Positions 7,047 to 61,698 of a stretch of DNA of 64,000 nucleotides are shown piece after piece (positions within the stretch are counted from its first letter, which is position 1; each line of letters begins with the position of its first letter). The translations under genes were made by a program, and so were the position numbers. Source of the DNA: a virus. The notes beneath the pieces are model-generated. The model was not told where the DNA came from. It did no database searches and worked only from the letters and a program-made list of their open reading frames with translations. Location: positions 1-64,000 of IMG/VR virus record IMGVR_UViG_3300010938_000006; one strand, 5' to 3'.

Positions 7047-9338
7047 CTATTTTGCTTCTGCCCAATTTCCTGCGGCTTTAGGTTCGGCTACTAGCGGAAC
7101 ACTTAGTTTAACTACATTTTCAGCACGCCTTCGCATAATTTCTTTAACTGTTTCAACAATATCAATAGCGCATTCTACAATGATTTCATCGTGAACTTGT
7201 AAAATAATGTGTGCATCTAAGTTCTTTTCTATAAACTCTTTTTGAATGTTAATCATTGCTCGGTTCACTATATGGGCTGCCAACCCTTGAATTTTAAAAT
7301 TTTTAGAATTATTAAGTAGATTTTTATACTCTCTTCGTTGCTTTAACATTCCTCTTTTTGCGGCCCATTTATAATTTAATAGTTCATCGCCATATAAATT
7401 ATACATCAACTTACATTCTTTAAGATGGCGAATCCTTCCAAATACGGTTCTTACCATTCCGTTATGTTTAGCTTCAAAATCACACGTTTTCATGTATCTG
7501 TGCAAATTAGGATAAGCTAAAAGATACTCACTAACTAGTTTAGCGCCCTCATCTTTATTTATTCCTAGTAGTTCTCCAATTCTATGACCTTCGGCACCAT
7601 ATGCTACTGCCAAAGCCATAGCTTTAAAGATATTTCTAATCTCTGGAAACAGATTTCCCAAAAAGGTTTCTTTATCTTTTTTAAAGGTAGAAACTTCTGG
7701 TCCATATTTTTTAACTTTTTTGGCAATTGAACTATAAAAGTCTTCGTTTTTTTCAAAAATTTCTTGTAAACCTTTATCTCCACTCATATGAGCAAAGCAC
7801 CTAGGCTCCAAACTACTATAATCCATATCTACTAATCGATACCCATCCCTACAAATAAATCCTTTACGAATAGCATTAGTATACTTACGTACTAAGGGTG
7901 AAATGTCAGCATCATCACCTTTAACTCTAGGCAAGTTTTGTAAGTTTGGATTACGACTACTAAATCTTCCTGAGGTTGTTCCAAATTGCAACATACTAGC
8001 GTAAATAATTCCATCTACTTGTCTTTCTAAAATACCTTCAATATAGGTACTGTGAAGTTTATTAAGTTTTTTGAATTCGATAATTTTTACTATCTCTGGA
8101 TATAAATTTTTAATGCTTTCTAAGAATTCATCATCAATCTTAGGTTTTCCAGTTTCAGTTTTTTCTAGTGAGCTTAAATTCCACTCAACACATAGTAATT
8201 GAGCCAAATGATCGTTACTTCTTAAATTGAATACGTTTCTTTGCTCTGGATTTCCTATAAAGAACAATTTTTCTTGTATTTGTCTTGTTACTTTACTATT
8301 AAATGGCGCTTTAGTTCCTGGTTCTGTTATCCAATCATAGAAGGCTTTAAATTGCGGAGTGACCTGTGCTTGCTGCAGTATTGCTTTTTTAGATAAAGTT
8401 ATCTTATTAGTTTTCTTATTAATAGGTAAAGGGATTCCTAAAACATCTGCCGCAGCTTTAGGAAAATTGCCAGTATTTTTTACTGGATAATCTTTATCCA
8501 ATAAACTTTGTTCAAAATCTTGTATATAATTCTTTATTGAAGTAATTACAGAATCTTCTAGTTTATCTATTTCTTTTTGAATAGTAGTACGCAATCTAGA
8601 GAAATACTCTACGTCTACTTTAAAACCCCTTCGCTTCATAGCTATAGTGACCGTTTTATATAATGGCATCACTTCTTCATCGTAAAAGAATTGTCTAAGT
8701 TCTTCTTCGTTTATTTTCTCTTCAAAGATCGTAAATAACATATAAGTAAGCATAACATCCCAACAACAGTACTCTCCTAGTATGTTTGTGTCAGCTTTAT
8801 GCATATCCATATGTTCTTTAGTTGCTCTACCACCATTAGCTTTGATATTTTCAACTAATTTTTCTTTAGCTTTGTCCGCCCACGGTCCTAGATAAGCAAC
8901 AGCTACCTCTTTTAATCCAAAAGGATTTTCTTCATCTAGGCAATGTTTTCCTAAAATAGTATCATGATATAGATAGTCTGCTATTTTAATTCCCCAATGA
9001 TGCTCAAGAACTAAAACGTCATAAATAATATTATGGCCAATAATTTTCTTAGTAGGAATGAAAGATTTTAACCAAGCCAAAATTTCTTGTTGTTGTTGGA
9101 CATCCCAAATTAAATTACCTTCTTTATCTCTCCAAACTAGATAAAAAGCTTTATGATTACTTAAACATAAACCAAGACCGTAAATATTGGCTGATTTTTC
9201 GATTAAAGAATCTGATTCAATATCAAGTACCAAATGTTCGGATTTTATAGCAGAGCAATAAGTCTTAAGTCTCTCAAAAAGAGCCCAATCATTAACTAGA
9301 TAGGTATCAAATTTAGGTTGAATATCAAATTTGTGCAT
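7047..9338 (-). CDS. polA: family A DNA polymerase with 3'-5' exonuclease domain
   Basis: Exo motifs LDIESDS and HNIIYDVLVL. Pol motif A DMDYSSLEPR, motif B FKAMALAVAYG, motif C QVHDEIIVE. Confidence 0.9.
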   Translation of the reverse strand: MHKFDIQPKFDTYLVNDWALFERLKTYCSAIKSEHLVLDIESDSLIEKSANIYGLGLCLSNHKAFYLVWRDKEGNLIWDVQQQQEILAWLKSFIPTKKIIGHNIIYDVLVLEHHWGIKIADYLYHDTILGKHCLDEENPFGLKEVAVAYLGPWADKAKEKLVENIKANGGRATKEHMDMHKADTNILGEYCCWDVMLTYMLFTIFEEKINEEELRQFFYDEEVMPLYKTVTIAMKRRGFKVDVEYFSRLRTTIQKEIDKLEDSVITSIKNYIQDFEQSLLDKDYPVKNTGNFPKAAADVLGIPLPINKKTNKITLSKKAILQQAQVTPQFKAFYDWITEPGTKAPFNSKVTRQIQEKLFFIGNPEQRNVFNLRSNDHLAQLLCVEWNLSSLEKTETGKPKIDDEFLESIKNLYPEIVKIIEFKKLNKLHSTYIEGILERQVDGIIYASMLQFGTTSGRFSSRNPNLQNLPRVKGDDADISPLVRKYTNAIRKGFICRDGYRLVDMDYSSLEPRCFAHMSGDKGLQEIFEKNEDFYSSIAKKVKKYGPEVSTFKKDKETFLGNLFPEIRNIFKAMALAVAYGAEGHRIGELLGINKDEGAKLVSEYLLAYPNLHRYMKTCDFEAKHNGMVRTVFGRIRHLKECKLMYNLYGDELLNYKWAAKRGMLKQRREYKNLLNNSKNFKIQGLAAHIVNRAMINIQKEFIEKNLDAHIILQVHDEIIVECAIDIVETVKEIMRRRAENVVKLSVPLVAEPKAAGNWAEAK

Positions 9339-10365
9339 TTACCCTATCCACTGCTTCTTTAAATTCTTGTGGTTCTAGACCTAGAGATATTCTAACATAT
9401 TCCGGCTTACCAAACAAGTCTCCATTAAGAACTTTTACTTTAGCAGCTTCAAAAGCTTTATCACATTTTGAACCTTTAGGAAGAAAAGCAAACATGCCAT
9501 TAGGAGACATAAACTTTACGTCTGCGATATCTTTATGCAGTGTTTTAAGTACTGTCCTATTCATAGCAAAATCTTTTTGACATAAAGTAACAAAATCATT
9601 GTATATTTCTGGTTTAGAATCAAACAGTTGTTCTAATTTTAATACTATTTGTTGGGAAGCAGAAGACACTCCAGTTGTTGTAATTTCCATATATTCAGAT
9701 GCTAATTCAGCATAAGTAGCATTATTAGTAGCTAAATATCCTATTCTAAGTCCTGATAATCCTAAGGATTTTGAATATGAGTGTATATACATTGAACAAC
9801 TATTCTCTAATCCAAATAAGGTTGGTAAATATATTTTAGAATTATAAGCTCCATCATGAATGAGAGGTAAGTTATCTGCTTGACAATCCATGTTAAAAGC
9901 ATCAAAATCTTGTTGATTCATCATATACCCATCTGGATTATTGGGTAGCGTTAATAAAATAGCTGTTTGATCATCTATCAGCGTATTACTATGAATTACA
10001 TTTAAATCCTCTTTTAAGGCTAGGGTGGGGAAACTTACCCAATAAGGTATTGGTATATATACAGAATCGTAACCTTGGGCCTTTACGGCAGCAAAGGAGG
10101 ATGATATAGCTTGCTTTGCACCATTTGTTATCACGATATATTTATAGCCCGTTTTGTTCTTTAAAAACTCTACTAATTCTGGTATTCCAGTAGAAGGTTT
10201 ATATTCGTGCGTAAGTATGTCATTATTACAGACAATATGGTTGTTTACCCCATGCTTATCTAATACAGATTTAAGGTTAATAGATACTAACTTAGGCTCG
10301 CCTACAGCTAAGTTAATCCAACCTGGAGCCAATTCTTTTCTTAACTGTAAATCAGGTTTACTCAT
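9325..10365 (-). CDS. PLP-dependent aminotransferase (class I/II fold)
   Basis: PLP-lysine motif YSKSLGLSGLRIGY and LPNNPDG, in a 346-aa fold-type I length protein. Its 3' end overlaps the polA ATG. Confidence 0.75.
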   Translation of the reverse strand: MSKPDLQLRKELAPGWINLAVGEPKLVSINLKSVLDKHGVNNHIVCNNDILTHEYKPSTGIPELVEFLKNKTGYKYIVITNGAKQAISSSFAAVKAQGYDSVYIPIPYWVSFPTLALKEDLNVIHSNTLIDDQTAILLTLPNNPDGYMMNQQDFDAFNMDCQADNLPLIHDGAYNSKIYLPTLFGLENSCSMYIHSYSKSLGLSGLRIGYLATNNATYAELASEYMEITTTGVSSASQQIVLKLEQLFDSKPEIYNDFVTLCQKDFAMNRTVLKTLHKDIADVKFMSPNGMFAFLPKGSKCDKAFEAAKVKVLNGDLFGKPEYVRISLGLEPQEFKEAVDRVNAQI

Positions 10366-15969: not shown

Positions 15970-16412
15970 TTTATATCTCCTTTTACTAATTTGACTAAAT
16001 CATTAGTAGTTTTCTTTAGTGGAACTTGAAAAAAACTTTCACCTTGATAAACATACTTATTTGGTATTTCTTTTAGAGGAGAAGAAAGTAAATCTTCTCC
16101 TTTTAAAGCCATGTGTTTAGTGCCATCATTATTAAACACGATATAATAAGTAGTTTTGTCAAGTTGGGCGTACTTGTATTTTCTTTGAGGAATTTGTAAA
16201 GTATCATACTCAAAATCTCCTGTCCAAACTCGCTTAAATTCGCACTCTACATAACCAACATGCTCTTCTCCCTTATAGAGAAGTAAGTCTACTGCTGTTT
16301 TCTTAGTGTTCTCTTTTACGGAGAATTTTGAGCCTTCAAAAAGTTTTGCTACAGCTTCTTTAGCTTTACGATCATTTTCTTCATACAATTTTCTATCAAA
16401 ACGCTTATTCAT
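15966..16412 (-). CDS. hypothetical protein, possible PD-(D/E)XK fold
   Basis: VDLLLY...GYVECEFK (D...ExK-like). Confidence 0.3.
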   Translation of the reverse strand: MNKRFDRKLYEENDRKAKEAVAKLFEGSKFSVKENTKKTAVDLLLYKGEEHVGYVECEFKRVWTGDFEYDTLQIPQRKYKYAQLDKTTYYIVFNNDGTKHMALKGEDLLSSPLKEIPNKYVYQGESFFQVPLKKTTNDLVKLVKGDIK

Positions 16413-17683
16413 TTTTTATCTTTCCTAAATCTGATAAATACTGGATGCCGCATAGAATTATCTTCTGTGACTTCCATATATTTTATCTCAATATAAGTAC
16501 CTAAATACTTATCTCTATTATTCCATACTTCTTTCCGTTCGTCAATTGTAAAGCCAGTACCTACATCCACTTTTACGCCATTAAAATCCACAGTAACTCC
16601 TCCTAAAGTACCCACAAAACTTTCTTCTCCTTCATAAAAACCAATGATTTTACCATCATAAGTTTCTATAGGTTTAACTTTCATAATAATATTAGCTTTA
16701 AGAGTAGGTCTTTTCCATTGATACTCTGCATCAGGATTTCTTAACATAAGACCTTCATAATTATTATTTAAATATTTTTTATATAGGTCTTTTACTTCTT
16801 TCGCATTATTGCATTTATCGGTTGCAACATCAATTATACGTTTATAATCTGCAACCTGGTCATTAAGAACTTCTCTTAGAATTTTAAGACGTTCTTCATA
16901 AGGAATAGTACATTTTTGCTTATCCCAGTCTTTAATAGGGATGCAGTCAAAAACTACATATTTTAGCCCTTTCGGGATTTCTGCGTCCTCTGTAGTAAGA
17001 GTAGAGGCTATGTTGTTAAAATTCTCATTATGAATGTATAGCTCACCATCTAATACATACTTATACATGCCTTCTAATGCTTTAAAATGCTCTAGGAGCT
17101 TAGGGTTCTCATAAACCTTACCCGCCCTAGTCAAAAACTTAGAAGCTCCTCGCTGAGGCCAATATATGGCCCTAAAACCATCCATTTTAGGACTAGCTAA
17201 GACAGGGTATTTAATGGCGCTCAAATTAGGCACATCATTAGGTGCTAAAAGTACTTTAAAATCTGTCACCTTAAAAAACTTTTCAGCAGATGTTCCTTTC
17301 AGTCCCTTATTAAAAGTAGTTACTCCTACACCTACTGCTGCTTTTCTTAATATAATCGAGTAGATACCTTCATCTTCAGGAGCCATATTACTAAAAACTC
17401 GTACAACCTCCTGTTTAGCCGCATTTCCTGTTATTTTTCTACTGCTTAGGTCTTGCGCCAGTTGATTAAAGCTTATATAGGATCGTCTAAAATCCCAAAA
17501 TTTTTCTATAGCTATTTCATAGTCTGGAATCTTTTTAATGTAAAATTGGGTATAAGGATCAAGATTGTAAAATAACAATTGAAGAAAATAATCGTTATCG
17601 CTATGCTTTTTAATAAAAGCTTCCTTTTCCGTATTGGAAGACATTTCCATTAATTCACTTATTAGTTTTGTTGGATTCGTCAT
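16409..17683 (-). CDS. ATP-dependent DNA ligase
   Basis: Adenylation motif SPKMDGFR (KxDG), EGLMLR, C-terminal OB-like region. Confidence 0.85.
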   Translation of the reverse strand: MTNPTKLISELMEMSSNTEKEAFIKKHSDNDYFLQLLFYNLDPYTQFYIKKIPDYEIAIEKFWDFRRSYISFNQLAQDLSSRKITGNAAKQEVVRVFSNMAPEDEGIYSIILRKAAVGVGVTTFNKGLKGTSAEKFFKVTDFKVLLAPNDVPNLSAIKYPVLASPKMDGFRAIYWPQRGASKFLTRAGKVYENPKLLEHFKALEGMYKYVLDGELYIHNENFNNIASTLTTEDAEIPKGLKYVVFDCIPIKDWDKQKCTIPYEERLKILREVLNDQVADYKRIIDVATDKCNNAKEVKDLYKKYLNNNYEGLMLRNPDAEYQWKRPTLKANIIMKVKPIETYDGKIIGFYEGEESFVGTLGGVTVDFNGVKVDVGTGFTIDERKEVWNNRDKYLGTYIEIKYMEVTEDNSMRHPVFIRFRKDKK

Positions 17684-22996: not shown

Positions 22997-23434
22997 CTAT
23001 TTTATTTCTGTAGTGTCTGTAAGTAGGTCTAATGTAAGCATTACTACTTTGTTCATATCTTTAGCGCCGTATTTTGTATAGTCTTTTCCGCCATCAATAA
23101 AAGTGTCGTTGGGACATCCACAATAAATAAAATGATGTCTATTTATACTGTATAAGACAGTATCACATTCATGACAATACAAAGCATCTTGAAATCTCCA
23201 TTTATCCATTTCTTCTTGAGTCATTCCTCTAACACAATTGAGTGGTGGGCCATTTAACAATAAATAATCTTTGTGGCCTTTTTTTCTATTGGGTTTGGCT
23301 ACTTTATAAACAGCTACAGGATGATATTCATTATTAACGCAGAATTCATTAAGAAACGTAAGTCCACCTTCAAACATTTTGTTTACTTTTTTGTGATCAA
23401 ATCCGTAATATTCAGCTTTTTTAATTTTACTCAT
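22997..23434 (-). CDS. hypothetical zinc-finger protein
   Basis: CHECD...HHFIYCGCPN. Start set to ATG 23434, in an ATGA overlap with the upstream LYG stop. Confidence 0.5.
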   Translation of the reverse strand: MSKIKKAEYYGFDHKKVNKMFEGGLTFLNEFCVNNEYHPVAVYKVAKPNRKKGHKDYLLLNGPPLNCVRGMTQEEMDKWRFQDALYCHECDTVLYSINRHHFIYCGCPNDTFIDGGKDYTKYGAKDMNKVVMLTLDLLTDTTEIK

Positions 23435-23676
23435 CCGTATAAATCCTGAGATATAGGAGTACAACCAGTGTGCATTATTTTAGAGAATTGTTCTCCAGTA
23501 TAATTGAGTACTTTATACTTTTGCGTGTCAAACATAAATACTACGTAGGGTTCTCTGTTATAATTCATAAGTCCCCAAGCGGCGACAGCCATTGGATTTA
23601 CATTAATATACAGGTCATTAGTTTGCTGCCCGTATTCTGTATCTATCTTTCTAAGTTGTAGCTCTATAAATTTCAC
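23431..23676 (-). CDS. LLY-tail family small protein
   Basis: Ends ISQDLYG. Confidence 0.55.
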   Translation of the reverse strand: MKFIELQLRKIDTEYGQQTNDLYINVNPMAVAAWGLMNYNREPYVVFMFDTQKYKVLNYTGEQFSKIMHTGCTPISQDLYG

Positions 23677-25589: not shown

Positions 25590-26458
25590 CGTATTCTATC
25601 TAAATTAGTATAAATCGGCTTACCCTTTACTTTTTTTACGAAAGTAGGCCAAACTATACCATATTTCTTAATAACTCTATTTATAACGGCCCACACTGCA
25701 TCTTCACTCATTTTAAGGCTTTTTGCTGCATCAGTCAATTGCATATTTTGTATAAAAACTTTGTTCAATATTTTCAATTGCTTCTTATTTAAATTATTTT
25801 CATTCTCTTCAATAAACTTACGCATGATAGCGAATTTACTTAGTTTTGTTAAAGCATAGTATATAGTGTACTTGGCTTTGTCTTCATTAAGGAGTCCGAA
25901 TTTGTCTGCTACATATTTAAAATCATTACCTTTAAAGAAATACTGTTGTACCATATCTTGCTTTCGCTTACTCAAACAATCCCAAGGTAATTCTAAATTA
26001 GAATTTGGAAATAGGCTTATAATTTCAGCCCCTTCAGTGTACTCTTCTGAGGAATATTCCAGGTTCTCTTTATACATAAGATAAGGCTCTTCTATCTTAT
26101 TCCTGTGCATAAAATCGTTTATTTGTCCACAGGGGGAATCGCAAGTGGCTTTTATGGGACAAGTGTCACACCTACTAATAAAAAGTTCGCCTTGGGCAAT
26201 ATTTTGAGTTTTAGCTAATTCGTCAAGATAAGGTTTAGCCGTAGGGCTTTTCCAAGGTAAAGGCCGACCAATACACTCTTTACCTATACATACGGCTCTT
26301 TTAGGGCATTCATCATAACTTTGACCATAAATATCTATACATTCTTGCTTAATTTGTCTAAGAATTTCAAAGCGTTTATCAAATGGAATAAGAGAATACC
26401 AAGGAGGTAAACTACAAGCAGGAGGCTTATTTTGTTCTTTCCATTTTTTTTCATCCAT
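25586..26458 (-). CDS. Cys-rich protein with C-terminal HTH (sigma region-4-like)
   Basis: LTDAAKSLKMSEDAVWAVINRVIKKYG helix-turn-helix plus several N-terminal Cys pairs. Confidence 0.3.
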   Translation of the reverse strand: MDEKKWKEQNKPPACSLPPWYSLIPFDKRFEILRQIKQECIDIYGQSYDECPKRAVCIGKECIGRPLPWKSPTAKPYLDELAKTQNIAQGELFISRCDTCPIKATCDSPCGQINDFMHRNKIEEPYLMYKENLEYSSEEYTEGAEIISLFPNSNLELPWDCLSKRKQDMVQQYFFKGNDFKYVADKFGLLNEDKAKYTIYYALTKLSKFAIMRKFIEENENNLNKKQLKILNKVFIQNMQLTDAAKSLKMSEDAVWAVINRVIKKYGIVWPTFVKKVKGKPIYTNLDRIR

Positions 26459-26753
26459 AAAGTAACTTCAAAAACTTTATTTTTTTATTGGTTTTTTGTT
26501 TACTTATACTAGTGAAGATTCTAGTATCATTATCAATTTCATAACAAAATACTGTAGTGTAATGATTACTAATATCTAACTTACTTGTATAGATATTAGT
26601 ATATACTAAATTTACAGAATATCTAGTAATTTTATGTGGCCTAGTTTCCCAAGTAGAATCAGAAATGTCATCTTCTAAAATAGAAGTGACTATGTAATAG
26701 TTTAAATCTCGTATATTCTTTAAAATATCACCTATCTTTAGATTCTTGTTCAT
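26451..26753 (-). CDS. LLY-tail family small protein
   Basis: LKIGDILKNI near the N-terminus. Ends KFLKLLYG. Confidence 0.55.
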   Translation of the reverse strand: MNKNLKIGDILKNIRDLNYYIVTSILEDDISDSTWETRPHKITRYSVNLVYTNIYTSKLDISNHYTTVFCYEIDNDTRIFTSISKQKTNKKIKFLKLLYG

Positions 26754-27483
26754 ATTGTTTAATCAGTCGATTAGTGAATATCGCCGTGCTTTGACTAGTT
26801 CCTGACATCTTAATACCAAATCCTTCAACATTTAGTCCATTTTCACATTGTCTAACTGGGCCACCGTAATTAGAACTAGCAACATATTTACCATCTTTGC
26901 AATTACCTACTGCATAAAGATTACCAGTTGTGTCTGGTACACATGCAGGATAGTATTGGCATTTAGCAGTCAAATTATTACCATCATTGCCAGCAGCTAC
27001 AGCAATTTTAATGCCTTTCTTAAGAGCTACAGTAACTATTTCTGTTTCTTTTTTAGAAGGGTCTAAGCCACCGCCACTAAAATTAATAAATTTGACATCT
27101 TGTTTAACTGCTTCTTCAAAAGAAGCGATTTCGTTATTGAGATTACTAAATGCTTGACTACCGTTACTGTAATATCTATATATAACTAAACAGAATTTTG
27201 TTGTATCTAGATTTCTAGATACTATACCTGCGATATTGGTGCCATGCCCATGTTTATCTTCTATCCCACCGCCCACAAAATCTTTATGCCCAGTTTTACA
27301 TAGAAATTTGGTTGTAGTATCATTTAGAGTTATGCCTGTATCAATAATAGCCACTTTAACTCTAGTTTCAAGAATAGCAGGCTCACGATTGATAATCGTT
27401 TCTTTATAGGCATCTTCTTTTCTACAAGAAGTAAAGCAAAGTAATAAACTTATTTTGAATATTAGTAACTTTTTCATAGGCAT
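26728..27483 (-). CDS. subtilisin-like (S8) serine protease, lipoprotein
   Basis: Triad contexts AIIDTGI, HGHGTNIAG, SGTSQSTA. Signal peptide with lipobox LLLCFTSC. Confidence 0.8.
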   Translation of the reverse strand: MPMKKLLIFKISLLLCFTSCRKEDAYKETIINREPAILETRVKVAIIDTGITLNDTTTKFLCKTGHKDFVGGGIEDKHGHGTNIAGIVSRNLDTTKFCLVIYRYYSNGSQAFSNLNNEIASFEEAVKQDVKFINFSGGGLDPSKKETEIVTVALKKGIKIAVAAGNDGNNLTAKCQYYPACVPDTTGNLYAVGNCKDGKYVASSNYGGPVRQCENGLNVEGFGIKMSGTSQSTAIFTNRLIKQYEQESKDR

Positions 27484-27658
27484 TCTCCAAATGTTTTATT
27501 GGTACGCTTATAATACCATTTTGAATTGTTTTTGCTCTAGTAAAAACGTGTACATAATAAGGATCTTCTATCTTATCTATTATCATTAAATAATCTATTG
27601 GACTTTTAAAATCTTTATATTGTATTATATCTCCGTATTTAAACTTGCTATTTTCCAT
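27422..27658 (-). CDS. LLY-tail family small protein
   Basis: FKYGDIIQYK near the N-terminus. Ends ITLLYFL. Confidence 0.5.
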   Translation of the reverse strand: MENSKFKYGDIIQYKDFKSPIDYLMIIDKIEDPYYVHVFTRAKTIQNGIISVPIKHLENAYEKVTNIQNKFITLLYFL

Positions 27659-27878
27659 AAAGTTGTTTAGCTATTTCAGAATTTGCTGGTAGTTTGTCCC
27701 AATTGGCTCGCATTTCATTTTGATTGCACCAACCATTTTTTCTACCAGTTGTGGGATTTTGCAATATGAATCTACCCCAATTTCTATTGCCTTCTCTATG
27801 AATAATTCTAAACTATTTAGTTCTTTTGTTTTGGACTAAATCTCCAACATTTAAGCTAATTAGCTCTTCGTGTGTCAT
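27648..27878 (-). pseudogene. LLY-tail family ORF interrupted by in-frame TAG (27813-27815)
   Basis: ATG 27878 in an ATGA overlap. Reads MTHEELISLNVGDLVQNKRTK*FRIIHREGN...EIAKQLYGK. The stop overlaps the next ATG. Confidence 0.6.
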
Positions 27879-28366
27879 TTCATAGCCTTTCTGACCTTAC
27901 GAATATAGCTCCTATTCCAAATCTCACCTTTAGCATTAAATTTAAGATGCCCTAAATTATAAGCAGCAAGGGCATGGTCTTCATTTTTGTATTTCTTTAA
28001 AAGCTTGGCTAAGTGTGCCGCAGCACAGATGGCATTAATAGAGGGGTTAAATAGCTCTTTGTAGTTTCCTTTAAAGAGGCATGGAAACCCTACAGAACGA
28101 GCTGTAGAGGGCTCAATTTGACATAACCCTACCGAAGGTCTACCCGCTTTGCTCCAATTAATTGCAGACGGTTTTAGACCACTTTCTACAGTATATAAGG
28201 CTATCATTAGCTTTTCTGGTACACCTTGAACGTAGGCAGCAGTTTTAATCATACCAGTGTGATAAGCATCTTTGTATGCTTTAGACTGCAAAGTACACAC
28301 CTTATCAGCACAATCAGCATAGCTTATGCAAGTAAAGATAGTAAATATGTATATGATATACTTCAT
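27875..28366 (-). CDS. lytic transglycosylase (SLT domain), secreted
   Basis: Signal peptide, VESGLKPSAIN, GLCQI, AYNLG. Confidence 0.8.
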   Translation of the reverse strand: MKYIIYIFTIFTCISYADCADKVCTLQSKAYKDAYHTGMIKTAAYVQGVPEKLMIALYTVESGLKPSAINWSKAGRPSVGLCQIEPSTARSVGFPCLFKGNYKELFNPSINAICAAAHLAKLLKKYKNEDHALAAYNLGHLKFNAKGEIWNRSYIRKVRKAMK

Positions 28367-28618
28367 TAATTAGTAGGCCATAGCACTACAGCATTAGCTT
28401 TAAATTTATTAGCTCCTAAGTTAGCTTCCGTTGACCAATCCTCAAATGATTCTTTAGAATAAAGCTTGACCACTTCAAGTGGTATCAGCAATATACATCA
28501 TATCAGGATTATAGTCAGCTAATAGAGAAAAATCATTTCCTTCACCATCTTTAGCTATAACTACTTCATGCTTAGGATTAAGCTTAAATAAAATTTCAAT
28601 AAGTTCTTTTACTTTCAT
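28366..28618 (-). pseudogene. small gene split by a frameshift near 28475
   Basis: N-part MKVKELIEILFKLNPKHEVVIAKDGEGNDFSLLADYNPDMMYIADTT then TGA. The +1 frame continues LEVVKLYSKESFEDWSTEANLGANKFKANAVVLWPTN and ends at a TAATG junction with the next gene. Confidence 0.5.
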
Positions 28619-29160
28619 GAACGATCTCCATATTGATATTCATAAATCTTTTTTATTTGCGCTAAAAATTCTTTTCTGCTTTGCTTATATTTAGCTAAAT
28701 TACAAAATTTACAACAGGTTACTACATTTTTTACAGAATATCCAAATTCATTCTTTACTTTATCAATACCATTATACACGCAATCTCCATTACGTTCAGA
28801 AACTTTTGTTAAAGGTGAGTTTTCACAATAATGACAATTATTTATTGTAAGTTCCTTAAAAACCTTTTTGGAAAGTCTAAAACTTATGTTTCTGTATTTT
28901 GCTTCTTTTTTATACCTTCCATATAAGGTATTAAAAGCAGATTGTCCAAAAGCTAAAGAATTTCTTTTTATGGACGATTCTATAGAATAGCAGCCACAAC
29001 TCTTACTTAATCCATTCACTAAGCAAGTGCCTCTAACTATTTTAGTTTTACCACAAATATACTTACAATGTCAAAAACTAATATTAGCTGTAATATTCGC
29101 TTTTGATAAAACTGTCCATCTACCAAATGTTTTGTTTAGTAAATTAAGAGGTTTGCACAT
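28615..29160 (-). pseudogene. HNH homing endonuclease with in-frame TGA (29071-29073) at a conserved Trp position
   Basis: ATG 29160. Reads MCKPLNLLNKTFGRWTVLSKANITANISF*HCKYICGKTKIV...SCGC...CHYCE...CCKFCNLAK. The track ORF (GTG 29019) covers only the C-terminal part. Confidence 0.75.
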
Positions 29161-29716
29161 TTTTCATCTTTTCTATAAAATAATTAAAAAAGTGGGCTGT
29201 AGCTAAGGCATCGGCCAAAGCATTATGTTTTTGTAATGTAGTAGGCCATTTTAAACCACATTTAGCCATAGATTTACTCAAACCGCTTTGGGTTTTAAGT
29301 CCATTAGCCAGTTGATAAGTCTGATATAAGGTTTTTACATCAAAGAATCTACGGCCAAAGATACTTCTATCTCCTGGATTTCCATCAGCTTTTACCTTAT
29401 CCCACAAATAAGAACTATCTCCACCACCCCAAGTAACTGGATAACTTTCAGCATTATGTTTAATCTTTAGTTCACATAATTTACCATAAGCTGATTGCAA
29501 ATCAATACCAAGGTCAGCTTGTGCTTGCGTAATCCCTGTTAATTTAGTAATAAATGGATCTATTGGCTCATTCGGGTTAACGATTACAGATAACTCCTCA
29601 ACAATGGTGAAGGGTTCTATATGAAAGGCTACGGCTCCAATTTGGATTACTTTATCTACTTCACCTTTAGCATTTTTATTCATTTCTAAATCTAGACTGA
29701 TAAATACTTTACCCAT
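29144..29716 (-). CDS. DEDDh 3'-5' exonuclease
   Basis: ISLDLEMN ... HNALADALATAHFF. Confidence 0.7.
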   Translation of the reverse strand: MGKVFISLDLEMNKNAKGEVDKVIQIGAVAFHIEPFTIVEELSVIVNPNEPIDPFITKLTGITQAQADLGIDLQSAYGKLCELKIKHNAESYPVTWGGGDSSYLWDKVKADGNPGDRSIFGRRFFDVKTLYQTYQLANGLKTQSGLSKSMAKCGLKWPTTLQKHNALADALATAHFFNYFIEKMKNVQTS

Positions 29717-29969
29717 ACAACTCTTTTTCTATAGCTCCAAATTGAACTATAATAAATTTAATATTTTCGTCTTCTGCATATAAGCCATCGTGTATACCTA
29801 AATCATTAATACACCAAAAATATACTCCACCATCATCTTTTGCTATCTTATATATTTTATAAGGCTTTCCTTTTTTAAAGGCATCATAATAACAGTCAGT
29901 GATTGGCAGTATAAACTAACCTACATAGTGTCTATAGTTTTTTATTAATTTGAACTTTCTCGGTAGCAT
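29709..29969 (-). pseudogene. LLY-tail family ORF interrupted by in-frame TAG (29916-29918)
   Basis: ATG 29969 is embedded in the upstream ILYA codons. Reads MLPRKFKLIKNYRHYVG*FILPITDCYYDAF...GAIEKELYG. The stop overlaps the exonuclease ATG. Confidence 0.55.
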
Positions 29970-30159
29970 AAAGTATTTCTACTATTTTAGTTCTTTTAAG
30001 ATACCACTCATTTAATTGTTCGTAGGTTAGATTCATACTCCAACCTTTATCATTATCTTCGTTATCTACTTTATAATAGCAATCATCTGTTAAACTAACT
30101 CTGCCGTTTACTATTAATGAGCCATCATTAAATGCTGGTTTTAACCTATAACGTACCAT
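29932..30159 (-). CDS. LLY-tail family small protein (extended tail)
   Basis: ...KIVEILYATEKVQINKKL. Confidence 0.5.
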   Translation of the reverse strand: MVRYRLKPAFNDGSLIVNGRVSLTDDCYYKVDNEDNDKGWSMNLTYEQLNEWYLKRTKIVEILYATEKVQINKKL

Positions 30160-30167
30160 AACGTGAA

Positions 30168-30452
30168 CTATTCATACTTAATGATAATCTCTTCCATAGG
30201 AAGAAACACGTCAAAACTATTATCATCTTCGGGATGATTTATACTTTCTTCAAATATGGCTCCAAATTTACTACGTAGGTAATAGAATACATTTTTCTTA
30301 GCATCCCATATAGCTATATTAGCATTTCGACAAGTGCCTAAATAATAAGCTCCGTGTTTTAGGTCAGACTTACGAATAAGTCCTTGTTTATAAGCTTCTT
30401 CTAGTTCTTCTGGTTTAACAGGATTACTTAGGTTAAAATTAAGAATTTTCAT
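30168..30452 (-). CDS. hypothetical protein
   Basis: 94-aa ORF. Confidence 0.5.
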   Translation of the reverse strand: MKILNFNLSNPVKPEELEEAYKQGLIRKSDLKHGAYYLGTCRNANIAIWDAKKNVFYYLRSKFGAIFEESINHPEDDNSFDVFLPMEEIIIKYE

Positions 30453-30658
30453 TCTACCGCTATTCCTTCGCTACCCGAATATTTTTTATCTATTTTGCCT
30501 TTAATCAAGAAATCTACCCAATTATCGTCTGTATTATCTTCATAAGTATAAAGAAATTCTTTAGCAAATGTAATAGCTGCTTTCTTTGATTTAAATTGTT
30601 TTACGTGCGGAATACAACTCTTACTATAGAATAGTAGATACATTACTTTCTCTTCCAT
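30449..30658 (-). CDS. hypothetical protein
   Basis: 69-aa ORF. Confidence 0.45.
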   Translation of the reverse strand: MEEKVMYLLFYSKSCIPHVKQFKSKKAAITFAKEFLYTYEDNTDDNWVDFLIKGKIDKKYSGSEGIAVE

Positions 30659-31287
30659 ATCATCATATCATAACCATCATTAAATTCAATGATAGTCGGC
30701 TTCATATCTTTTTTAAAGATATCATACCAATCAGATGGTTTCAATAGTCTTTCATCTCCAAAAGATGAGGTAGTGTACTTATAAGTAGGTACATAGTTAA
30801 TTGCTATCTCTGCTTGGCTTAATTGACAAGTTACTAATGCTTTAATAGCTGCGTCGTCAAAATGCTCTAAAAATCCATGAGAATACGCTATTACATGCCC
30901 TGCGGGTACTAATTGTGGACGTTTTCCTTGCCTCACAGTTTGCATATTTACATTCATACAATGATTATGAAACTGTAAAGACAATAAATTAACTGATTCT
31001 AATCTTACTTCCCTACATAATTCTCCAAGATTTTCCACTGCCAAATCAGTAATTTCTTTACTTCTTTCAAAGAGAGTAAGTTTTGCATCAGGTATTTGAT
31101 TTAGAAGAATTTTAGCACACGTACCAATATCAGAACCGTATTCCACTAATTTTGGAGTATTGATAGTTTCTAGTAAAATTGCTTGACTAATAAGATTAAA
31201 AAATGGAGCGTATTTGTTTGCAAACTTAGTTTCATAAACAATGTTGTTTACTCTAGGTCTACGAAATAAATACCATTTGTTTAGCAA
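30643..31287 (-). CDS. class I SAM-dependent methyltransferase-like protein
   Basis: Motif I-like VEYGSDIGT and acidic loop LTLFERS. Confidence 0.45.
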   Translation of the reverse strand: MLNKWYLFRRPRVNNIVYETKFANKYAPFFNLISQAILLETINTPKLVEYGSDIGTCAKILLNQIPDAKLTLFERSKEITDLAVENLGELCREVRLESVNLLSLQFHNHCMNVNMQTVRQGKRPQLVPAGHVIAYSHGFLEHFDDAAIKALVTCQLSQAEIAINYVPTYKYTTSSFGDERLLKPSDWYDIFKKDMKPTIIEFNDGYDMMIWKRK

Positions 31288-31297
31288 TTATCTATCA

Positions 31298-31615
31298 TTA
31301 CTGTCCATACAATGTAGTTCCTAATTCTGCAATAGTAAATTTATTGAGTTTGTTTATATCATACAAAGTATCGAATCCTTTAGGATTATCAATAAACTGT
31401 AGCGGAACTAATTTTAAATTGATGTGATTTTTATAGCCTAAAGAAGGAATATCAATAAGAACGTCAGAAACATAAAATATTTTTGTCCAGAAAGTTTCAT
31501 CTTTATTAGGGTAGTTAAATTTAGTAACGTATCTTTCTTCTTCAAAGATAATTACTTTATATAAGTACGTATTTGCTAATTTCAAAGTATTTAAACTTAA
31601 TACAACACTATTCAT
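31298..31615 (-). CDS. LLY-tail family small protein
   Basis: Ends ELGTTLYGQ. Confidence 0.5.
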   Translation of the reverse strand: MNSVVLSLNTLKLANTYLYKVIIFEEERYVTKFNYPNKDETFWTKIFYVSDVLIDIPSLGYKNHINLKLVPLQFIDNPKGFDTLYDINKLNKFTIAELGTTLYGQ

Positions 31616-53431: not shown

Positions 53432-53686
53432 ATGTTAGAAAAAGTTACATACACTTGTGGCAAATGTGGTTGGAGTAAATCTCTTACCGCTATGTGGCAA
53501 GATATAAAGCCTAAAAAATGTCCCAGAAGTAAATGTAAAACGAGTTTTGTAAAAGATCCTCAAATACTTCAAATTTCTCTTTCTAAACAAGAAACTCCGG
53601 TTATTGTAGAAGAAACTGAAATGAAAGAGGAAGAAGTTCTTGAAGAAAAAGTTGTCTTCAAAGAATATAAAAAGAAGAATAAATAA
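53432..53686 (+). CDS. zinc-ribbon protein with acidic tail
   Basis: CGKCGW ... CPRSKC. 84 aa. Confidence 0.5.
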   Translation: MLEKVTYTCGKCGWSKSLTAMWQDIKPKKCPRSKCKTSFVKDPQILQISLSKQETPVIVEETEMKEEEVLEEKVVFKEYKKKNK

Positions 53687-53688
53687 AT

Positions 53689-54282
53689 ATGGGTGACGAG
53701 CAAAATAAAAATAATGATGAAAAATTTGCTCACCTTTCTGATGAACAGAAAGAAAAGGCTGAAAAGTCTATTGCTAAGTTAAATAGTGTCAGGGCTCTCA
53801 AAAAAATTAGTAATGAGGGTTCTAAGTGGACATTGCTACAAGAAATCTTTCAAGAAATTGTAGCAACTCACACAATAAGTAATCCTGATAAATTACCTCC
53901 AGTTAAGCAGATGGTACAGGAATTACGTAATGAAATTAGTATTCGATACCAAGATGAGGAAGAATTAAAAACCCTTCTTTTAGAAGGTATTCCTACTGAC
54001 GCTTCTGTAAGAAAATGGTTACAAAAAGATGGTTGGAATGATGCTGTTTGGACTAAGGTTCGATTAAATGGTCTTTTCACAAAAGAGAAGAGGGCCCAAA
54101 TGATTGATTCTTTATGGAAACGGGGCATGGAAAAATCAGACACAGCCGCCAAGATTTGGCTCACTATTTCTGGAGACTATGCTGAAAGTGCTCCTGAGGC
54201 CAACAATAAAACCGCAGACATGTACAGAGAGATTAATAAGATACTCCATGGACAAAATGGCGGTTCAGAAAACAAAGGCTAA
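53689..54282 (+). CDS. putative terminase small subunit
   Basis: 197-aa helical protein directly upstream of, and coupled to, terL. Assigned by position only. Confidence 0.4.
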   Translation: MGDEQNKNNDEKFAHLSDEQKEKAEKSIAKLNSVRALKKISNEGSKWTLLQEIFQEIVATHTISNPDKLPPVKQMVQELRNEISIRYQDEEELKTLLLEGIPTDASVRKWLQKDGWNDAVWTKVRLNGLFTKEKRAQMIDSLWKRGMEKSDTAAKIWLTISGDYAESAPEANNKTADMYREINKILHGQNGGSENKG

Positions 54283-54286
54283 GTAG

Positions 54287-55906
54287 ATGATTCCTGATAC
54301 AATAAAGGAACATAATACTGAAGGTAGGCCACTACGAATACATGAACTTGATATTGAAGCGCTTGCTAAGTGGTTACACGATAATAAAATACGTACCACG
54401 CAAGGTAAGCTAATACAACCTTTGCATGAAGGACATATTGAAGTAATTACAGATCCAGCAAGATTTAAAGTTTTAGCGTGTGGAAGACGTTGGGGTAAAA
54501 CACTTTTAACATCTTTAATGGCATTAGCAGTACTAATGCAAATGAATAGACGTGTTTGGATTGTTGCTCCAGATTATAGTCTATGCGAAAAAGTATTTAG
54601 AGAATTATATAATATTCTGGTAAACCAGTTGAAAATTATTCAACCTGGAAAACCAGGAGGCGGTAGAGCCCGCAATCAAAAAGGCGATTATTATTTGGAA
54701 ACGCCGTGGGGCTCTGTTCTAGAAGCTAAATCAATGGAAAGTCCAGATTCACTTGCGGGTGAAGCGAACGACTTAGTTATTGTTGATGAAGCTGCACTAG
54801 ACTCAAAACTAGAAGATATTTGGGTACAGATGTTGCAGCCTACCTTGATGGATAAGCAGGGCAGTGCAATTTTTATTTCTACCCCTCGTGGAAAAAATTC
54901 TTTTTACAAATTATTTCTTTTCGGAAACTACGGTCGTCGTCAAAGAGATGGTAAATTATCTATTACTATAGACGAAGAGACTGGAGTTTCTAATGACATG
55001 CAAGAGTGGAGTTCTTTTCAAAGAACTAGTTATGATAATCCCCTACTTGCAACAACTCCTGAAAAATCTAAGGAAGAAATTGACTCAGCGTACCGAAGGG
55101 CAATCCTTTCAGGTAAGCTTCAAAAATTCAAACAAGAATACCTAGCTGATTTTGAATCAATCCCCGATACTTGTTTTCCTGGATTTAGAGTAGAAGAAAC
55201 AGAAAAGAAGAAATTTCCTCATGTTATTGATTATAACTGGCATCCATTATCTGGACCAGTGTTTGCTGCTTGCGATCATAACTATGCAAAACCAGCTTCA
55301 ACTATTTTTGCACAGATGAATATAAATGGAGATATTGTAATCTTTGATGAAAAGTTTACTAAAAATACCACCTCATATATGCAAGCGCAACAGATTCTTG
55401 ATAAAGAAAAAGAATTAAATAAAACTGCTATGCAGATTTATCAAGCAGAATGTGTTGAAAGCAAATTTAGAAATCACATTAAGTTTAAAAGTATTGTTGC
55501 AGATATTAGCGGCGATCAACTTCAACTTAATGGTAGAACAGCGTGGGATGATTTTGAATCAGTTTTGGGAAGAAGACCAGTTGGACTAAGACAAGATAGA
55601 GAAACTGGATGTAATATAATTAGATTGTGGTTAGAATATCCACAATTTGATCAAAAAGGTAGTCCAGTATTTGATTCTAATAAAGATCAAGTCACTTTCC
55701 CTAAAATATTCATCACAAGAAATTGTGTAAATCTTATTTATGCTTTAAGTACCGCTACGTTTAAGAAAACAAAAGGCGGAGCATTAAAAGAAGATTATGA
55801 TGAAACTCCAGAAGGTTATGAAGGGCTAATTGATGCTCTCAGATACTTAATGGTTTATTTGTTTCATGATAAAGGAACTCATTTTACGGTTATGAAGGGA
55901 TTCTAA
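54287..55906 (+). CDS. terL: terminase large subunit
   Basis: Walker A ACGRRWGKT, Walker B LVIVDEAA, C-terminal nuclease-size domain. Confidence 0.85.
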   Translation: MIPDTIKEHNTEGRPLRIHELDIEALAKWLHDNKIRTTQGKLIQPLHEGHIEVITDPARFKVLACGRRWGKTLLTSLMALAVLMQMNRRVWIVAPDYSLCEKVFRELYNILVNQLKIIQPGKPGGGRARNQKGDYYLETPWGSVLEAKSMESPDSLAGEANDLVIVDEAALDSKLEDIWVQMLQPTLMDKQGSAIFISTPRGKNSFYKLFLFGNYGRRQRDGKLSITIDEETGVSNDMQEWSSFQRTSYDNPLLATTPEKSKEEIDSAYRRAILSGKLQKFKQEYLADFESIPDTCFPGFRVEETEKKKFPHVIDYNWHPLSGPVFAACDHNYAKPASTIFAQMNINGDIVIFDEKFTKNTTSYMQAQQILDKEKELNKTAMQIYQAECVESKFRNHIKFKSIVADISGDQLQLNGRTAWDDFESVLGRRPVGLRQDRETGCNIIRLWLEYPQFDQKGSPVFDSNKDQVTFPKIFITRNCVNLIYALSTATFKKTKGGALKEDYDETPEGYEGLIDALRYLMVYLFHDKGTHFTVMKGF

Positions 55907-56218
55907 ATGGCATACGATAAAACGCAATCTAGAGTACCTAGAAGGGCTATGTTAGCCGGTGATAAACATATGACCACAGAGCTAAGTGCCAGCGTCACTG
56001 TACAAGTCATTCAACTAACTATGGTAGCGCAAAAAGTAACTTGGCAATCTACAGGAACTTTAGCGGGCAATGTTGAATTTTCTTCTAACGGCACAGATTT
56101 TTACACTTCTACGGCATTTACAGCGAATGTTGCAGGTTCATATAATACCCATAATGTTGTTGCAGTTCGAGTCACTAGAACGGGTGGAATTGGAAAGCTC
56201 GCTGTATTGGCGGTCTAA
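55907..56218 (+). CDS. hypothetical protein
   Basis: 103-aa ORF abutting the terL stop. Confidence 0.5.
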   Translation: MAYDKTQSRVPRRAMLAGDKHMTTELSASVTVQVIQLTMVAQKVTWQSTGTLAGNVEFSSNGTDFYTSTAFTANVAGSYNTHNVVAVRVTRTGGIGKLAVLAV

Positions 56219-56445
56219 TGAAACAATATTTTAACAGATATAATCATAAATTTGTATTAGATGCTGAGCAATTAAAACCTACTGCTAGAACTATAGAAGT
56301 AATGAATGGACTTTATACAGCCATTTATGAAGAGTTTTCTGGAGCAGTATATAATCGCAAATATAAAGATATGTCTGTACAGCAAAGAATAGATAAAGTA
56401 AATGAATTTGCTGAAAATTGGTTAAAGCTTAGAGGTTTAGAATAA
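56218..56445 (+). CDS. hypothetical protein
   Basis: 75-aa ORF with an ATGA-type overlap. Confidence 0.5.
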   Translation: MKQYFNRYNHKFVLDAEQLKPTARTIEVMNGLYTAIYEEFSGAVYNRKYKDMSVQQRIDKVNEFAENWLKLRGLE

Positions 56446-56714
56446 TGAAAACTACAATTAAAACTGGGAAAGCCAGTGATAAGCAATCCAAAAAAGTTCA
56501 AGGTGACTCTGCTAGATTTGCTGCACTTTCAGATATGAATATGCAACAGGCGCCTGCAATCGCTCCTCGTGGACTTGGTTCTTCTTATGCTCACGCTGTT
56601 GGAAACATCATGCATCAAGCTAAAGAAGTTAAGGGTAGTAAAAACGGATTTTTAGGGCAAGAGAAAAAAACTCTAGACCCTAAAGAACATGCGCATAGTT
56701 TACTTAAAAAGTAA
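56445..56714 (+). CDS. hypothetical protein
   Basis: 89-aa ORF. Confidence 0.5.
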   Translation: MKTTIKTGKASDKQSKKVQGDSARFAALSDMNMQQAPAIAPRGLGSSYAHAVGNIMHQAKEVKGSKNGFLGQEKKTLDPKEHAHSLLKK

Positions 56715-56784
56715 ATTTATTGCTAAAGGCAAGAAATAGTCAACCAAAAGTTGAACGTTTCAACCTTAATATTAAGGAGTAACA

Positions 56785-56985
56785 ATGGCTAAATTAGGAA
56801 AAACGAACGCTGGTGCGGTGCCTGAATCAGTCCCGCATCTTAAGTCTCGTGGTATGAAGAATCCTATGCCTGCCTCTCTTCCCCTAAACTCTTCAGGTAA
56901 ACCTGAGTGGAGCATGGGAAATGATGGTCCTGGTAAGAAGGCTTCACCTCCGGCTTCTGGTAAGAAAGCTCCGGGCGAGATGTAA
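56785..56985 (+). CDS. hypothetical small basic protein
   Basis: SD TAAGGAGTAACA then ATG. 66 aa. Followed by a terminator. Confidence 0.55.
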   Translation: MAKLGKTNAGAVPESVPHLKSRGMKNPMPASLPLNSSGKPEWSMGNDGPGKKASPPASGKKAPGEM

Positions 56986-56991
56986 AATTTA

Positions 56992-57025
56992 GGGAGAGGG
57001 AGTAATATCTCTCTCCTTATTTTTC
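56992..57025 (+). terminator. GA/CT inverted repeat plus T-run
   Basis: GGGAGAGGGAGTAATATCTCTCTCC followed by TTATTTTT. Confidence 0.5.
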
Positions 57026-57079
57026 AACTTAAAATTCACTGACAGAGGTTAGTGACTTTTTCCTTTGAGAGGAAAATGC

Positions 57080-58921
57080 ATGTCATTTAATTTAGGAATT
57101 AGTAGTCATCCTACAAATCGTCTAGGCGGAATGAGTTCTGTCGGTGTATATTTGTATGAAGATGTTTACTATAGACAATGGATTACTGAAATAGCTCTTG
57201 CATTTTATGAAGGGCGACAAGATGAATTCGTTTGGTTAGATCTAGTCAAGCAATTCAGAAATCCTGAAAAGCAACAGATTCTCCCTATTAACTTAACTAA
57301 AGAAATAGTTGATGAAACCTCTATTTTATATAGAGAAGATCCGATTTATCAAGTCGTTGATGAAAACGGGAAACATTTACCTGAAGACCAGAAACTCTGG
57401 GAACAAATTCAGGAAGATTGCCGTTATAAAATGACTATGGATAAACTGGATAGATGGGTAAAGCTTTTAGGTACTGTGCTAGTTAAGGTTAGTTTCGTTG
57501 ATCCAAAAACTGGACAATTAGTAAAGAAAACTGAGGGCGGCCAAGTTCAATTAGATATACTTCATGGTGGAGTATATGATATTCGATATGGCGCATCGCC
57601 CTATTATATCACCGAACTAATGATAGGTTTCGGTACAAAGTTTGGAGGATTCAGCAGAAACCCTATTGGTGGTGGTTTAGCTGGAACACTCCCAAGCGCT
57701 GGAGATTTAGGCGCTGCATCCGTTAGTGCAAAACAAAAAATTAGCAATCCAGAACATTTAGCTTCAGTAGATCGTATTTATTGGAGCGCAAATGACCATA
57801 AGATAATTGACAAAAACGACAATGAATATATCGTTAAAAATCCTTATGGTATTATTCCTGCGGTTCCTTTTTTCAATCAAGATCCAGCTCATTACTTTTT
57901 TCTACCGATTAATGAGCCCCTTATTTATGCAAACCATGCGATAAATATGAGAATCACGGATCTTAACCATATCGCTAAGTTCCAATCATTTGGAGTGCCG
58001 GTAGTAAGTGGCGTTGAAAGACCTACTTCTACTCGTCAAGGTCGTCCTGTTGATGATTTTAATATCCTTAAAAGCGGAATGGCTCAATCTAAATTTGGTG
58101 GTTTAGTCGGATTTGGTGGACTAGGTGCTGGCGGAGTTTATAGAAATTTCGATGTAGGATTTGGTACTTTTCGTGATGGAAATGCTGATGCTAATGCTCT
58201 TGGAGTGTCTATTGGCCCTGATACTGCAATAGCGGTTGGTGAAAAGGGAGACTTTAAGTTTGCCCATCCATCAGCGGATATTAAGGGACTAATTGCTGTG
58301 ATTGAATCTGTCACTGACATGATTCGTATTAATCATGGTTTACGTCCTAAGTACAAAGATACTTTACCAAGTTCAGGCTTCGCTCTTTTAATGGAAAAGA
58401 TTGGTGTGATTGAAGAAAATCGTCGCCGAGCTAAACTATTTAAAGAAAGAGAACAACAATTATTCCAGGTTATTAAAACACTTTGGAATACTCACAATTC
58501 AAAAAGTGGGCAAAAAAAGTTCTCAGAAAAAGCTACTTTACGAGTAAGTTACGTCCAACCTGAGTTTCCTGTTGATCCTAAGACCAACATTGAAACTATT
58601 ATGATGGAAAATAAATTACTTGAACAAGGTTATAAAGATGCTTATCGCAAGCTTTATCCTCACTTAGATGATTCAGAAATCAATAAGCGAATTAAAACTC
58701 GTAGAAAAGAAAAACTCGATCAAACTGTTGAAGACGCCAAAATTATAGCCGCTGGCGCTAAAGAGTTTGAAAGTGCTGGTTTAGATGCCGCTTTATATTT
58801 CGGTGGAAAACCACAGAAAGAAAAAGAAGACGGAGTGACTAAACCTAAAATAGACAATAAAACTAAACACTCCGAGGATAGTTCTAAGCAGGGGGATAAG
58901 AACTCTGATCCTCGTAAATAA
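57080..58921 (+). CDS. putative portal protein
   Basis: 613 aa, start ATG 57080 after an AGAGGAAAA SD. Lies between the terminase block and the scaffold/capsid genes. Confidence 0.6.
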   Translation: MSFNLGISSHPTNRLGGMSSVGVYLYEDVYYRQWITEIALAFYEGRQDEFVWLDLVKQFRNPEKQQILPINLTKEIVDETSILYREDPIYQVVDENGKHLPEDQKLWEQIQEDCRYKMTMDKLDRWVKLLGTVLVKVSFVDPKTGQLVKKTEGGQVQLDILHGGVYDIRYGASPYYITELMIGFGTKFGGFSRNPIGGGLAGTLPSAGDLGAASVSAKQKISNPEHLASVDRIYWSANDHKIIDKNDNEYIVKNPYGIIPAVPFFNQDPAHYFFLPINEPLIYANHAINMRITDLNHIAKFQSFGVPVVSGVERPTSTRQGRPVDDFNILKSGMAQSKFGGLVGFGGLGAGGVYRNFDVGFGTFRDGNADANALGVSIGPDTAIAVGEKGDFKFAHPSADIKGLIAVIESVTDMIRINHGLRPKYKDTLPSSGFALLMEKIGVIEENRRRAKLFKEREQQLFQVIKTLWNTHNSKSGQKKFSEKATLRVSYVQPEFPVDPKTNIETIMMENKLLEQGYKDAYRKLYPHLDDSEINKRIKTRRKEKLDQTVEDAKIIAAGAKEFESAGLDAALYFGGKPQKEKEDGVTKPKIDNKTKHSEDSSKQGDKNSDPRK

Positions 58922-58932
58922 AAGAGGAATAC

Positions 58933-59301: not shown

Positions 59302-59348
59302 GTCCTGTTATTGATCCATAATCTAGAAGAGCTAGTTAAGGAGAACAA

Positions 59349-60308: not shown

Positions 60309-60326
60309 TTAAGGAGAGTTACATAA

Positions 60327-61649: not shown

Positions 61650-61670
61650 TCTAGTAAGGTAAAAGATATG

Positions 61671-61698
61671 GTAGGGAGAGAATTACTCTCTCCCTACT
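61671..61698 (+). terminator. rho-independent terminator after the capsid gene
   Basis: GTAGGGAGAG-AATTA-CTCTCCCTAC followed by TTT. Confidence 0.7.

Follow-up and report, generated by a model that had tools for sequence, protein, structure and literature searches.

The window, by which we mean the whole stretch of 64,000 nucleotides (64 kb) analysed here, is phage DNA, encoding a family A DNA polymerase, a DnaB-like helicase, an ATP-dependent DNA ligase and the large subunit of the terminase. On the minus strand, positions 28615..29160 hold the ancestral full-length frame of a nuclease gene, 181 codons plus a stop, which is broken once, at codon 30, by an in-frame TGA (29071..29073, minus strand). 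Read from the ATG at 29160-29158, the frame specifies MCKPLNLLNKTFGRWTVLSKANITANISF, then the TGA (29073-29071), then HCKYICGK...SCGC. The terminal TGA (28615..28617, minus strand) shares an ATGA with the start codon of the small ORF that follows (28475-28618). Within this frame the gene finder calls a residual ORF of 134 amino acids (28615..29019, minus strand), which starts at GTG 29019 and contains the whole of the nuclease core. The original prediction had described a frame running from ATG 29160 through a TGA to SCGC, with the ORF from GTG 29019 as its C-terminal part only; when checked against the sequence both its coordinates and its reading of the frame were correct, and the residual ORF is in frame with ATG 29160.

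The start of the nuclease gene overlaps the end of an RNase_T exonuclease gene by 17 nt. The same overlap occurs in L002 (2884-3453 and 3437-3973) which, together with a second contig, L003, derives from a related phage; both contigs encode an intact orthologue, P0002, in the gene order RNase_T exonuclease, nuclease, SLT transglycosylase. Both phage lineages compared thus carry the nuclease at the same junction. In the window approximately 250 bp (28371-28629) lie between the nuclease and the SLT gene and harbour two tiny ORFs of 47 (28475-28618) and 41 amino acids (28366-28491). L002 has neither, the stop of its nuclease gene overlapping the start of the SLT gene directly. Two other, weak paralogues of the nuclease domain are present in L002 (1-117 and 6354-6596; 30–44% identity) and none was detected in the window at E < 1, which suggests that the load of nuclease genes varies between related phages. 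No match to positions 27000-31000 was found among GenBank phages by megablast. The more distant phages L053 and L054 possess the RNase_T neighbour without the nuclease; synteny is not conserved there, and they are hence uninformative as empty sites. No empty site for the gene was found among IMG/VR and metagenome contigs.

Searching 5.8 billion proteins yielded three relatives of the nuclease protein: P0001, identical to the shortened 134-aa product; P0002, full length at 178 amino acids and 70% identical over 98% of the query; and P0003, likewise full length at 179 amino acids and 37% identical. Residues 1-177 of P0002 match positions 29160-28630 without a gap (tblastn; 70% identity, E = 1e-76). 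The 47 codons upstream of the GTG are, therefore, of homologous origin, rather than a frame that happens to be open, and the similarity to relatives that the predicted frame would entail is present here, in the form of homology to the N-terminal module of the family. P0002 and P0003 can be aligned from their first residue onwards, and where the window has the TGA they carry Trp (SFWYCKCDCG and MVWICKCECG, respectively); in a codon alignment of the DNA the triplet facing the TGA of the window is TGG in L002 and L003. The TGA at codon 30 is, accordingly, a G-to-A change from an ancestral TGG (Trp). Among 507 copies of the N-terminal module, drawn from the top 152 proteins of the family, this column holds Trp in 80%, Tyr in 8% and Phe in 2% (aromatic in 90%), and in an alignment of 60 sequences with similar architecture it belongs to the columns conserved at 90% or more. 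The motif which the original prediction had named, FG-x-L/W-T-V ... W-x-C-x-C-x-CG ... SCGC, was confirmed, with the TGA falling on its strongly conserved Trp column. The description of that Trp as invariant goes too far for a residue present in 80% of 507 copies; its strong conservation, and the TGG in the relatives, stand.

The N-terminal Cys-rich module occupies codons 9-57 (28990..29136, minus strand) and has the column profile G..FG.WTV ... [W]-x-C-x-[C]-x-CG ... L..G...SCGC. In the AlphaFold2 model of P0002 (mean pLDDT 94.5) it is predicted to form strands at residues 15-21, 29-34 and 39-43, followed by a helix. Many relatives contain 2–11 tandem copies of this module of approximately 55 residues, from which a modular role in DNA recognition can be deduced; it is presumably a zinc-binding DNA-recognition module. 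Across the relatives P0004-P0153 the architecture is an array of zinc-type modules (G..FG.LTV ... W.C.C.CG ... L..G...SCGC) preceding a PacI-like core. The family is large, with 86,549 members at E ≤ 1e-3 among 1.84 billion cluster representatives (HMMER; 50%-identity representatives), and has neither a Pfam nor an NCBIfam model. In a full-text search of the papers covered, none contained the motif string FGRLTV. A PacI-like family with a repeatable Cys module might merit description independently of the gene discussed here.

The C-terminal part of the conceptual protein contains a His-Me finger (beta-beta-alpha-metal) core of the PacI type at codons 109-157 (28690..28836, minus strand), as judged by the profile, by Foldseek and by the table of conserved columns. 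Its motif is C109-x-x-C112 ... G-I-D133-K134 ... G-Y141 ... N145 ... C-C150-x-x-C153-N154-x-x-K157. PacI (3ldy) is the sole solved structure with significant similarity to the family profile (hmmsearch; E = 1.4e-6 over 83 profile positions). Foldseek matched the P0002 model to PacI and the Gme HNH enzyme, the top match being 3ldy_A [E = 7.9e-4; probability 1.00], at a TM-score of only 0.38/0.46. The core of the model comprises strands 118-122, 125-129, 131-134 and 146-149 and then a helix at 152-159. As the type member of its His-Me finger group, PacI has no catalytic histidine and employs a tyrosine of the omega loop instead; an Asp and an Asn bind its metal ion (PMC5714182, PMC4081073). In the profile alignment, from which the PacI residue numbers used here are taken, the family has no His at the canonical catalytic position; G-Y141 falls on PacI G99-Y100, G-I-D-R on G-V-D92-R93, and C-x-x-C-N on N113. 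Y141 is 98% conserved, and C109, C112, C150, C153, D133 and N154 are each conserved at 99.5% or above; all seven are retained in the window copy. The predicted beta-beta-alpha-metal core, with its Asp/Asn ligand and flanking CxxC...CxxC site, places the protein in the His-Me finger superfamily. The replacement of His by the omega-loop Tyr, along with significant similarity in sequence and fold, points to the PacI-like group (His-Me finger group 20). From the profile and the model, the putative nuclease is a distant relative of PacI and not a close member of its group.

The original prediction had assigned the gene to homing endonucleases of the HNH_3/AP2 type. This assignment did not hold, no Pfam family reaching threshold and PacI being nearest by both sequence and fold. 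Scanned against Pfam (hmmscan), the conceptual 181-aa protein matched no family at E ≤ 1, and the NCBIfam scan gave nothing usable. None of the intact relatives P0002, P0003, P0005, P0009, P0025, P0026 and P0046 matched HNH_3 or AP2; membership of HNH_3 (PF13392) or AP2 was rejected, no profile match above the gathering score occurring in the protein or in these seven relatives. The C-terminal half of close relatives gives only marginal matches to the Pfam families HNH and HNH_5, and in one member of the family, P0026, HNH exceeds its threshold (33.2 bits versus 21.4). Among the phage protein families, PHROG 374 and PHROG 3118, both annotated as HNH endonuclease, match the nuclease protein, and the PHROG matches include an endonuclease VII annotation.

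The TGA is not the only lesion in the gene. Codon 34 (29059..29061, minus strand), in the same module, is TAT (Tyr) where L002 and L003 have TGT, again a G-to-A change; each of the 509 aligned copies of the module has Cys in this column, the Tyr of the window having a frequency of 0.000. Reading the TGA as Trp had been expected to restore the motif. It does not, since the Cys four codons further on is itself replaced. Two more lesions lie in the C-terminal part. Codon 113 (28822..28824, minus strand), a Gly in 81% of the family and GGA in L002, is GAA (Glu; frequency 0.005), and codon 134 (28759..28761, minus strand), an Arg in 98% and AGA in L002, is AAA (Lys; 0.5%). The latter stands in the G-I-D-R motif, beside the metal-ligand Asp, and aligns with R93 of PacI. 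The window copy has kept its metal-ligand residues, the tyrosine and every residue of the core zinc site. On the coding strand all four lesions are G-to-A (TGG to TGA, TGT to TAT, GGA to GAA, AGA to AAA), a pattern consistent with AT-biased or deamination-type mutation acting upon an unconstrained gene.

At conserved columns the window copy is alone in departing from the family majority five times, apart from the stop, and the sister copy once; the excess has the direction expected of a decaying gene and is not significant in a relative-rate comparison (5 versus 1, p = 0.22). The family HMM scores the window copy at 178.5 bits and the sister at 203.2 bits. In the pairwise comparison with L002, dN/dS comes to 0.24 for the whole gene; codons 1-47 have 0.43 and codons 48-181 have 0.19, a difference between the two ends that rests on few sites. 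As these values are everywhere below 1, most of the divergence took place under purifying selection and the decay can only be recent. The TGA can be bracketed as younger than the split from L002/L003. When closer relatives were sought for dating it, in IMG/VR with P0002 and among metagenome contigs with P0001, the best showed 42% identity.

The same TGA is found in L001, another contig of this phage, which represents a different assembly or population: across 12.4 kb it departs from the window in three indels and in no more than two aligned mismatches. With the TGA present in two contigs, a one-off error of assembly is not the explanation. Each of the indels lies inside a gene: a 17-bp insertion at about 34414 splits a 462-aa DUF2201 gene into pieces of 79 and 389 amino acids; a 152-bp deletion (31311-31462) cuts a 105-aa gene to 60; and a 22-bp insertion at about 23292 falls within a 155-aa ORF (22997-23464). 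They represent either defective population variants or assembly artefacts.

The phage uses the standard genetic code, and recoding of TGA is rejected within the window. TGA terminates 32 of its 116 ORFs (28%), nine of them in four-nucleotide ATGA-type overlaps with the next start. In the DNA ligase gene (16409-17683) the TGA comes one residue after the last position of the Pfam profile, and in an aminotransferase gene (9325-10365) four residues after it. Two 100-aa orthologues of equal length end with TGA in the window (26451-26753) and with TAA in L002 (5547-5849). The nuclease orthologue in L002 itself terminates with TGA, as an ATGA overlap with the SLT gene; and in the window the nuclease gene encodes Trp15 as TGG and has TGA as its terminal stop. 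A scan of the 64-kb window revealed no other frame on a gene strand that is split by TGA into two coding-looking pieces, so that the in-frame TGA of the nuclease gene is the only one in 64 kb. The frequency of TGG in the window, 12.1 per 1000 codons, is normal. ARAGORN detected only a tRNA-Met in the 64-kb window and no suppressor tRNA with the anticodon UCA. Phages are regarded as recoded when coding density rises by more than 5–10% under an alternative code, and such phages concentrate their in-frame stops in structural and lysis genes (bioRxiv 10.1101/2021.08.26.457843). Greedy coding density in the window is 86.2% under code 11, 88.1% under code 4 (TGA coding) and 88.9% under code 15 (TAG coding); the gains, 1.9 points for code 4 against 2.7 for code 15, are non-specific and below that level. 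The structural genes at 53-63 kb are free of in-frame stops and all close with TAA. By its count of in-frame TGA codons, its density gain and its lack of a UCA tRNA the 64-kb window does not belong with the stop-codon-recoded or code 4 phages.

Stop codon usage differs along the window. In the terminase/structural block (53432-63152, plus strand) 13 of 13 genes stop with TAA, and among the replication and early genes (1-45000, minus strand) TAA, TGA and TAG are mixed. The TAA-only block probably reflects the common bias of highly expressed genes towards TAA.

The original prediction had allowed that the TGA corresponds to Trp either ancestrally or in translation. The ancestral half is verified by the TGG of the relatives; the translational half fails the genome-level tests. 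The correspondence of TGA with Trp is ancestral and not translational, the Trp codon TGG being one transition away from TGA. By the same token, a TGA at a Trp column is what a nonsense mutation is expected to look like and is not in itself a sign of recoding. Our preferred explanation, which we consider probable, is that this is a recently inactivated and decaying phage nuclease gene, struck by a TGG-to-TGA nonsense mutation in a phage of standard code. According to this scheme a free-standing nuclease gene, with a PacI-like core behind a single Cys-rich recognition module, would have been knocked out by the transition at codon 30; under the standard code ribosomes would halt at the TGA after 29 residues; and Cys34Tyr, Gly113Glu and Arg134Lys would have accumulated in an early phase of decay. 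Presumably no full-length nuclease is made, and the gene would be either dispensable or selfish.

Four other explanations need to be weighed against a nonsense mutation. It is extremely improbable, and the least credible of these, that TGA is read as Trp in the phage or its host, by code 4 or by stop-codon recoding, and that the gene is intact. Low-GC genomes such as this one (34%) would suit that explanation, as would the existence of TGA-to-Trp recoded phages, in only about 35% of which suppressor tRNAs have been detected (bioRxiv 10.1101/2021.08.26.457843); moreover, the 64 kb examined belong to a genome of about 115 kb or more, and a suppressor tRNA could lie outside them. It is contradicted by conserved genes that stop at TGA at their natural ends, by the nine ATGA overlaps, by the failure to find a second in-frame TGA in any gene of the window, structural genes included, and by a normal TGG frequency and a non-specific gain in density. 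An error of sequencing or assembly, or a minority allele in the consensus, the real gene having TGG, is highly unlikely. The source is a metagenomic assembly represented by its consensus only, and L001 may come from the same or a related sample, so that the two contigs are perhaps not independent; they nevertheless share this base while differing by three indels, and an error in one base does not account for three further rare substitutions at conserved sites. Low-level readthrough deserves slightly more credit, though it too is very unlikely. UGA is the leakiest of the bacterial stop codons, and a C in the next position is reported to weaken termination in E. coli. The tRNA-Trp is near-cognate for UGA, Trp being the natural product of UGA miscoding. 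The host tRNA-Trp might thus reinsert Trp at codon 30, the stop throttling a potentially toxic nuclease to a few percent of its usual output. The codon is exactly the one whose miscoding gives Trp, the base after it is C (a UGA-C context), and the 29 codons upstream are still open and conserved. Tyr34, Glu113 and Lys134 make a working enzyme an unlikely outcome of such readthrough, however; the orthologues are intact and need no throttle; no Rfam element or SECIS-like structure lies downstream, and the local fold does not stand out (z = -2.3). One nonsense transition explains the finding more simply. There is a similarly slim chance that the TGA has been kept as a leaky stop yielding traces of nuclease, or that the phage is only starting to recode TGA as Trp, by means of a suppressor tRNA encoded outside the window. 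Positions 28400-29400 gave no SECIS or other Rfam match at E ≤ 1. Two specialised forms of readthrough were rejected: a selenoprotein (UGA read as Sec), as there is no SECIS and homologues have Trp or a different aromatic residue in this column, and not Cys; and structured readthrough, as there is no Rfam match and a predicted hairpin is, by eye, not conserved in L002.

A shortened gene is unlikely, albeit less so than the foregoing. By initiation at GTG 29019, or by reinitiation 52 nt past the TGA, it would yield a PacI-like nuclease of 134 amino acids; having lost most of the recognition module, the product might be non-specific, act in trans with another protein or serve as an inhibitor. 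The dN/dS of 0.19 for codons 48-181 is in its favour, as is the retention of C109, C112, D133, Y141, N145, C150, C153, N154 and K157, and gene callers do report the ORF, with an AGAGG 10 nt upstream of the GTG; SD-like cores precede 13 of the 29 large genes in the window. The dN/dS value, however, integrates a long period before the mutation. Arg134Lys and Gly113Glu strike core columns that are 98% and 81% conserved, every close member of the family listed has at least one complete N-terminal module, and the product would begin in mid-module, keeping only the SCGC half. The SD spacing of 10 nt is long, and the GTG is enclosed by a predicted 10-bp hairpin (28995-29035, minus strand; cuugcuuagu / auuaaguaag). 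The local fold of 96 nt has an energy of -22 kcal/mol. We would consequently retain the nonsense mutation as the explanation and annotate P0001, the 134-aa call, as what is left, at the 3' end, of a pseudogene of 181 codons.

When a dispensable nuclease gene of a phage is struck by a TGG-to-TGA nonsense mutation, the event is routine and of little biological importance. What this case does illustrate is that an in-frame TGA at a Trp column is not evidence of recoding unless it recurs across genes.

The TGA-to-Trp phages of the Jade and Agate clades resemble the phage described here in that the window, too, is low in GC and has an in-frame TGA at a Trp position. They have many in-frame stops in structural and lysis genes, whereas the window has one in 64 kb, uses TGA as the stop in 28% of its ORFs, and shows neither a suppressor tRNA nor a specific gain in density. 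Readthrough of UGA by tRNA-Trp yields the A1 protein of phage Qbeta, and were readthrough to occur at codon 30, Trp would likewise be the residue expected. Unlike in Qbeta, there is no sign here of selection for readthrough, and the downstream substitutions are disabling.

Like the free-standing HNH or homing endonuclease genes of phages, this is a small nuclease gene wedged between unrelated genes (RNase_T and SLT). Invasion, decay and loss are the usual fate of homing-type endonuclease genes, and the life-cycle model predicts inactivating mutations such as the window copy carries (PMC13405050). The gene occupies the same locus in both lineages compared, and neither presence/absence polymorphism nor a target site was seen.

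The family has in common with PacI (PDB 3LDY/3M7K) the core C-x-x-C ... G-(I/V)-D-R-x-D-S-x-x-G-Y ... N ... C-x-x-C-N-x-x-K. The catalytic His is missing here too, a Tyr of the omega loop aligns with Y100, and the Asp/Asn metal ligands and the Cys4 site are conserved. Identity to PacI amounts to only about 21%, and a Cys-rich module, often in tandem, takes the place of the N-terminal part of PacI. The copy in the window differs further in being interrupted and in having Lys at the position of R93. Finally, PacI is specified by a bacterial restriction gene, while its distant relative lies in a cluster of early phage genes.
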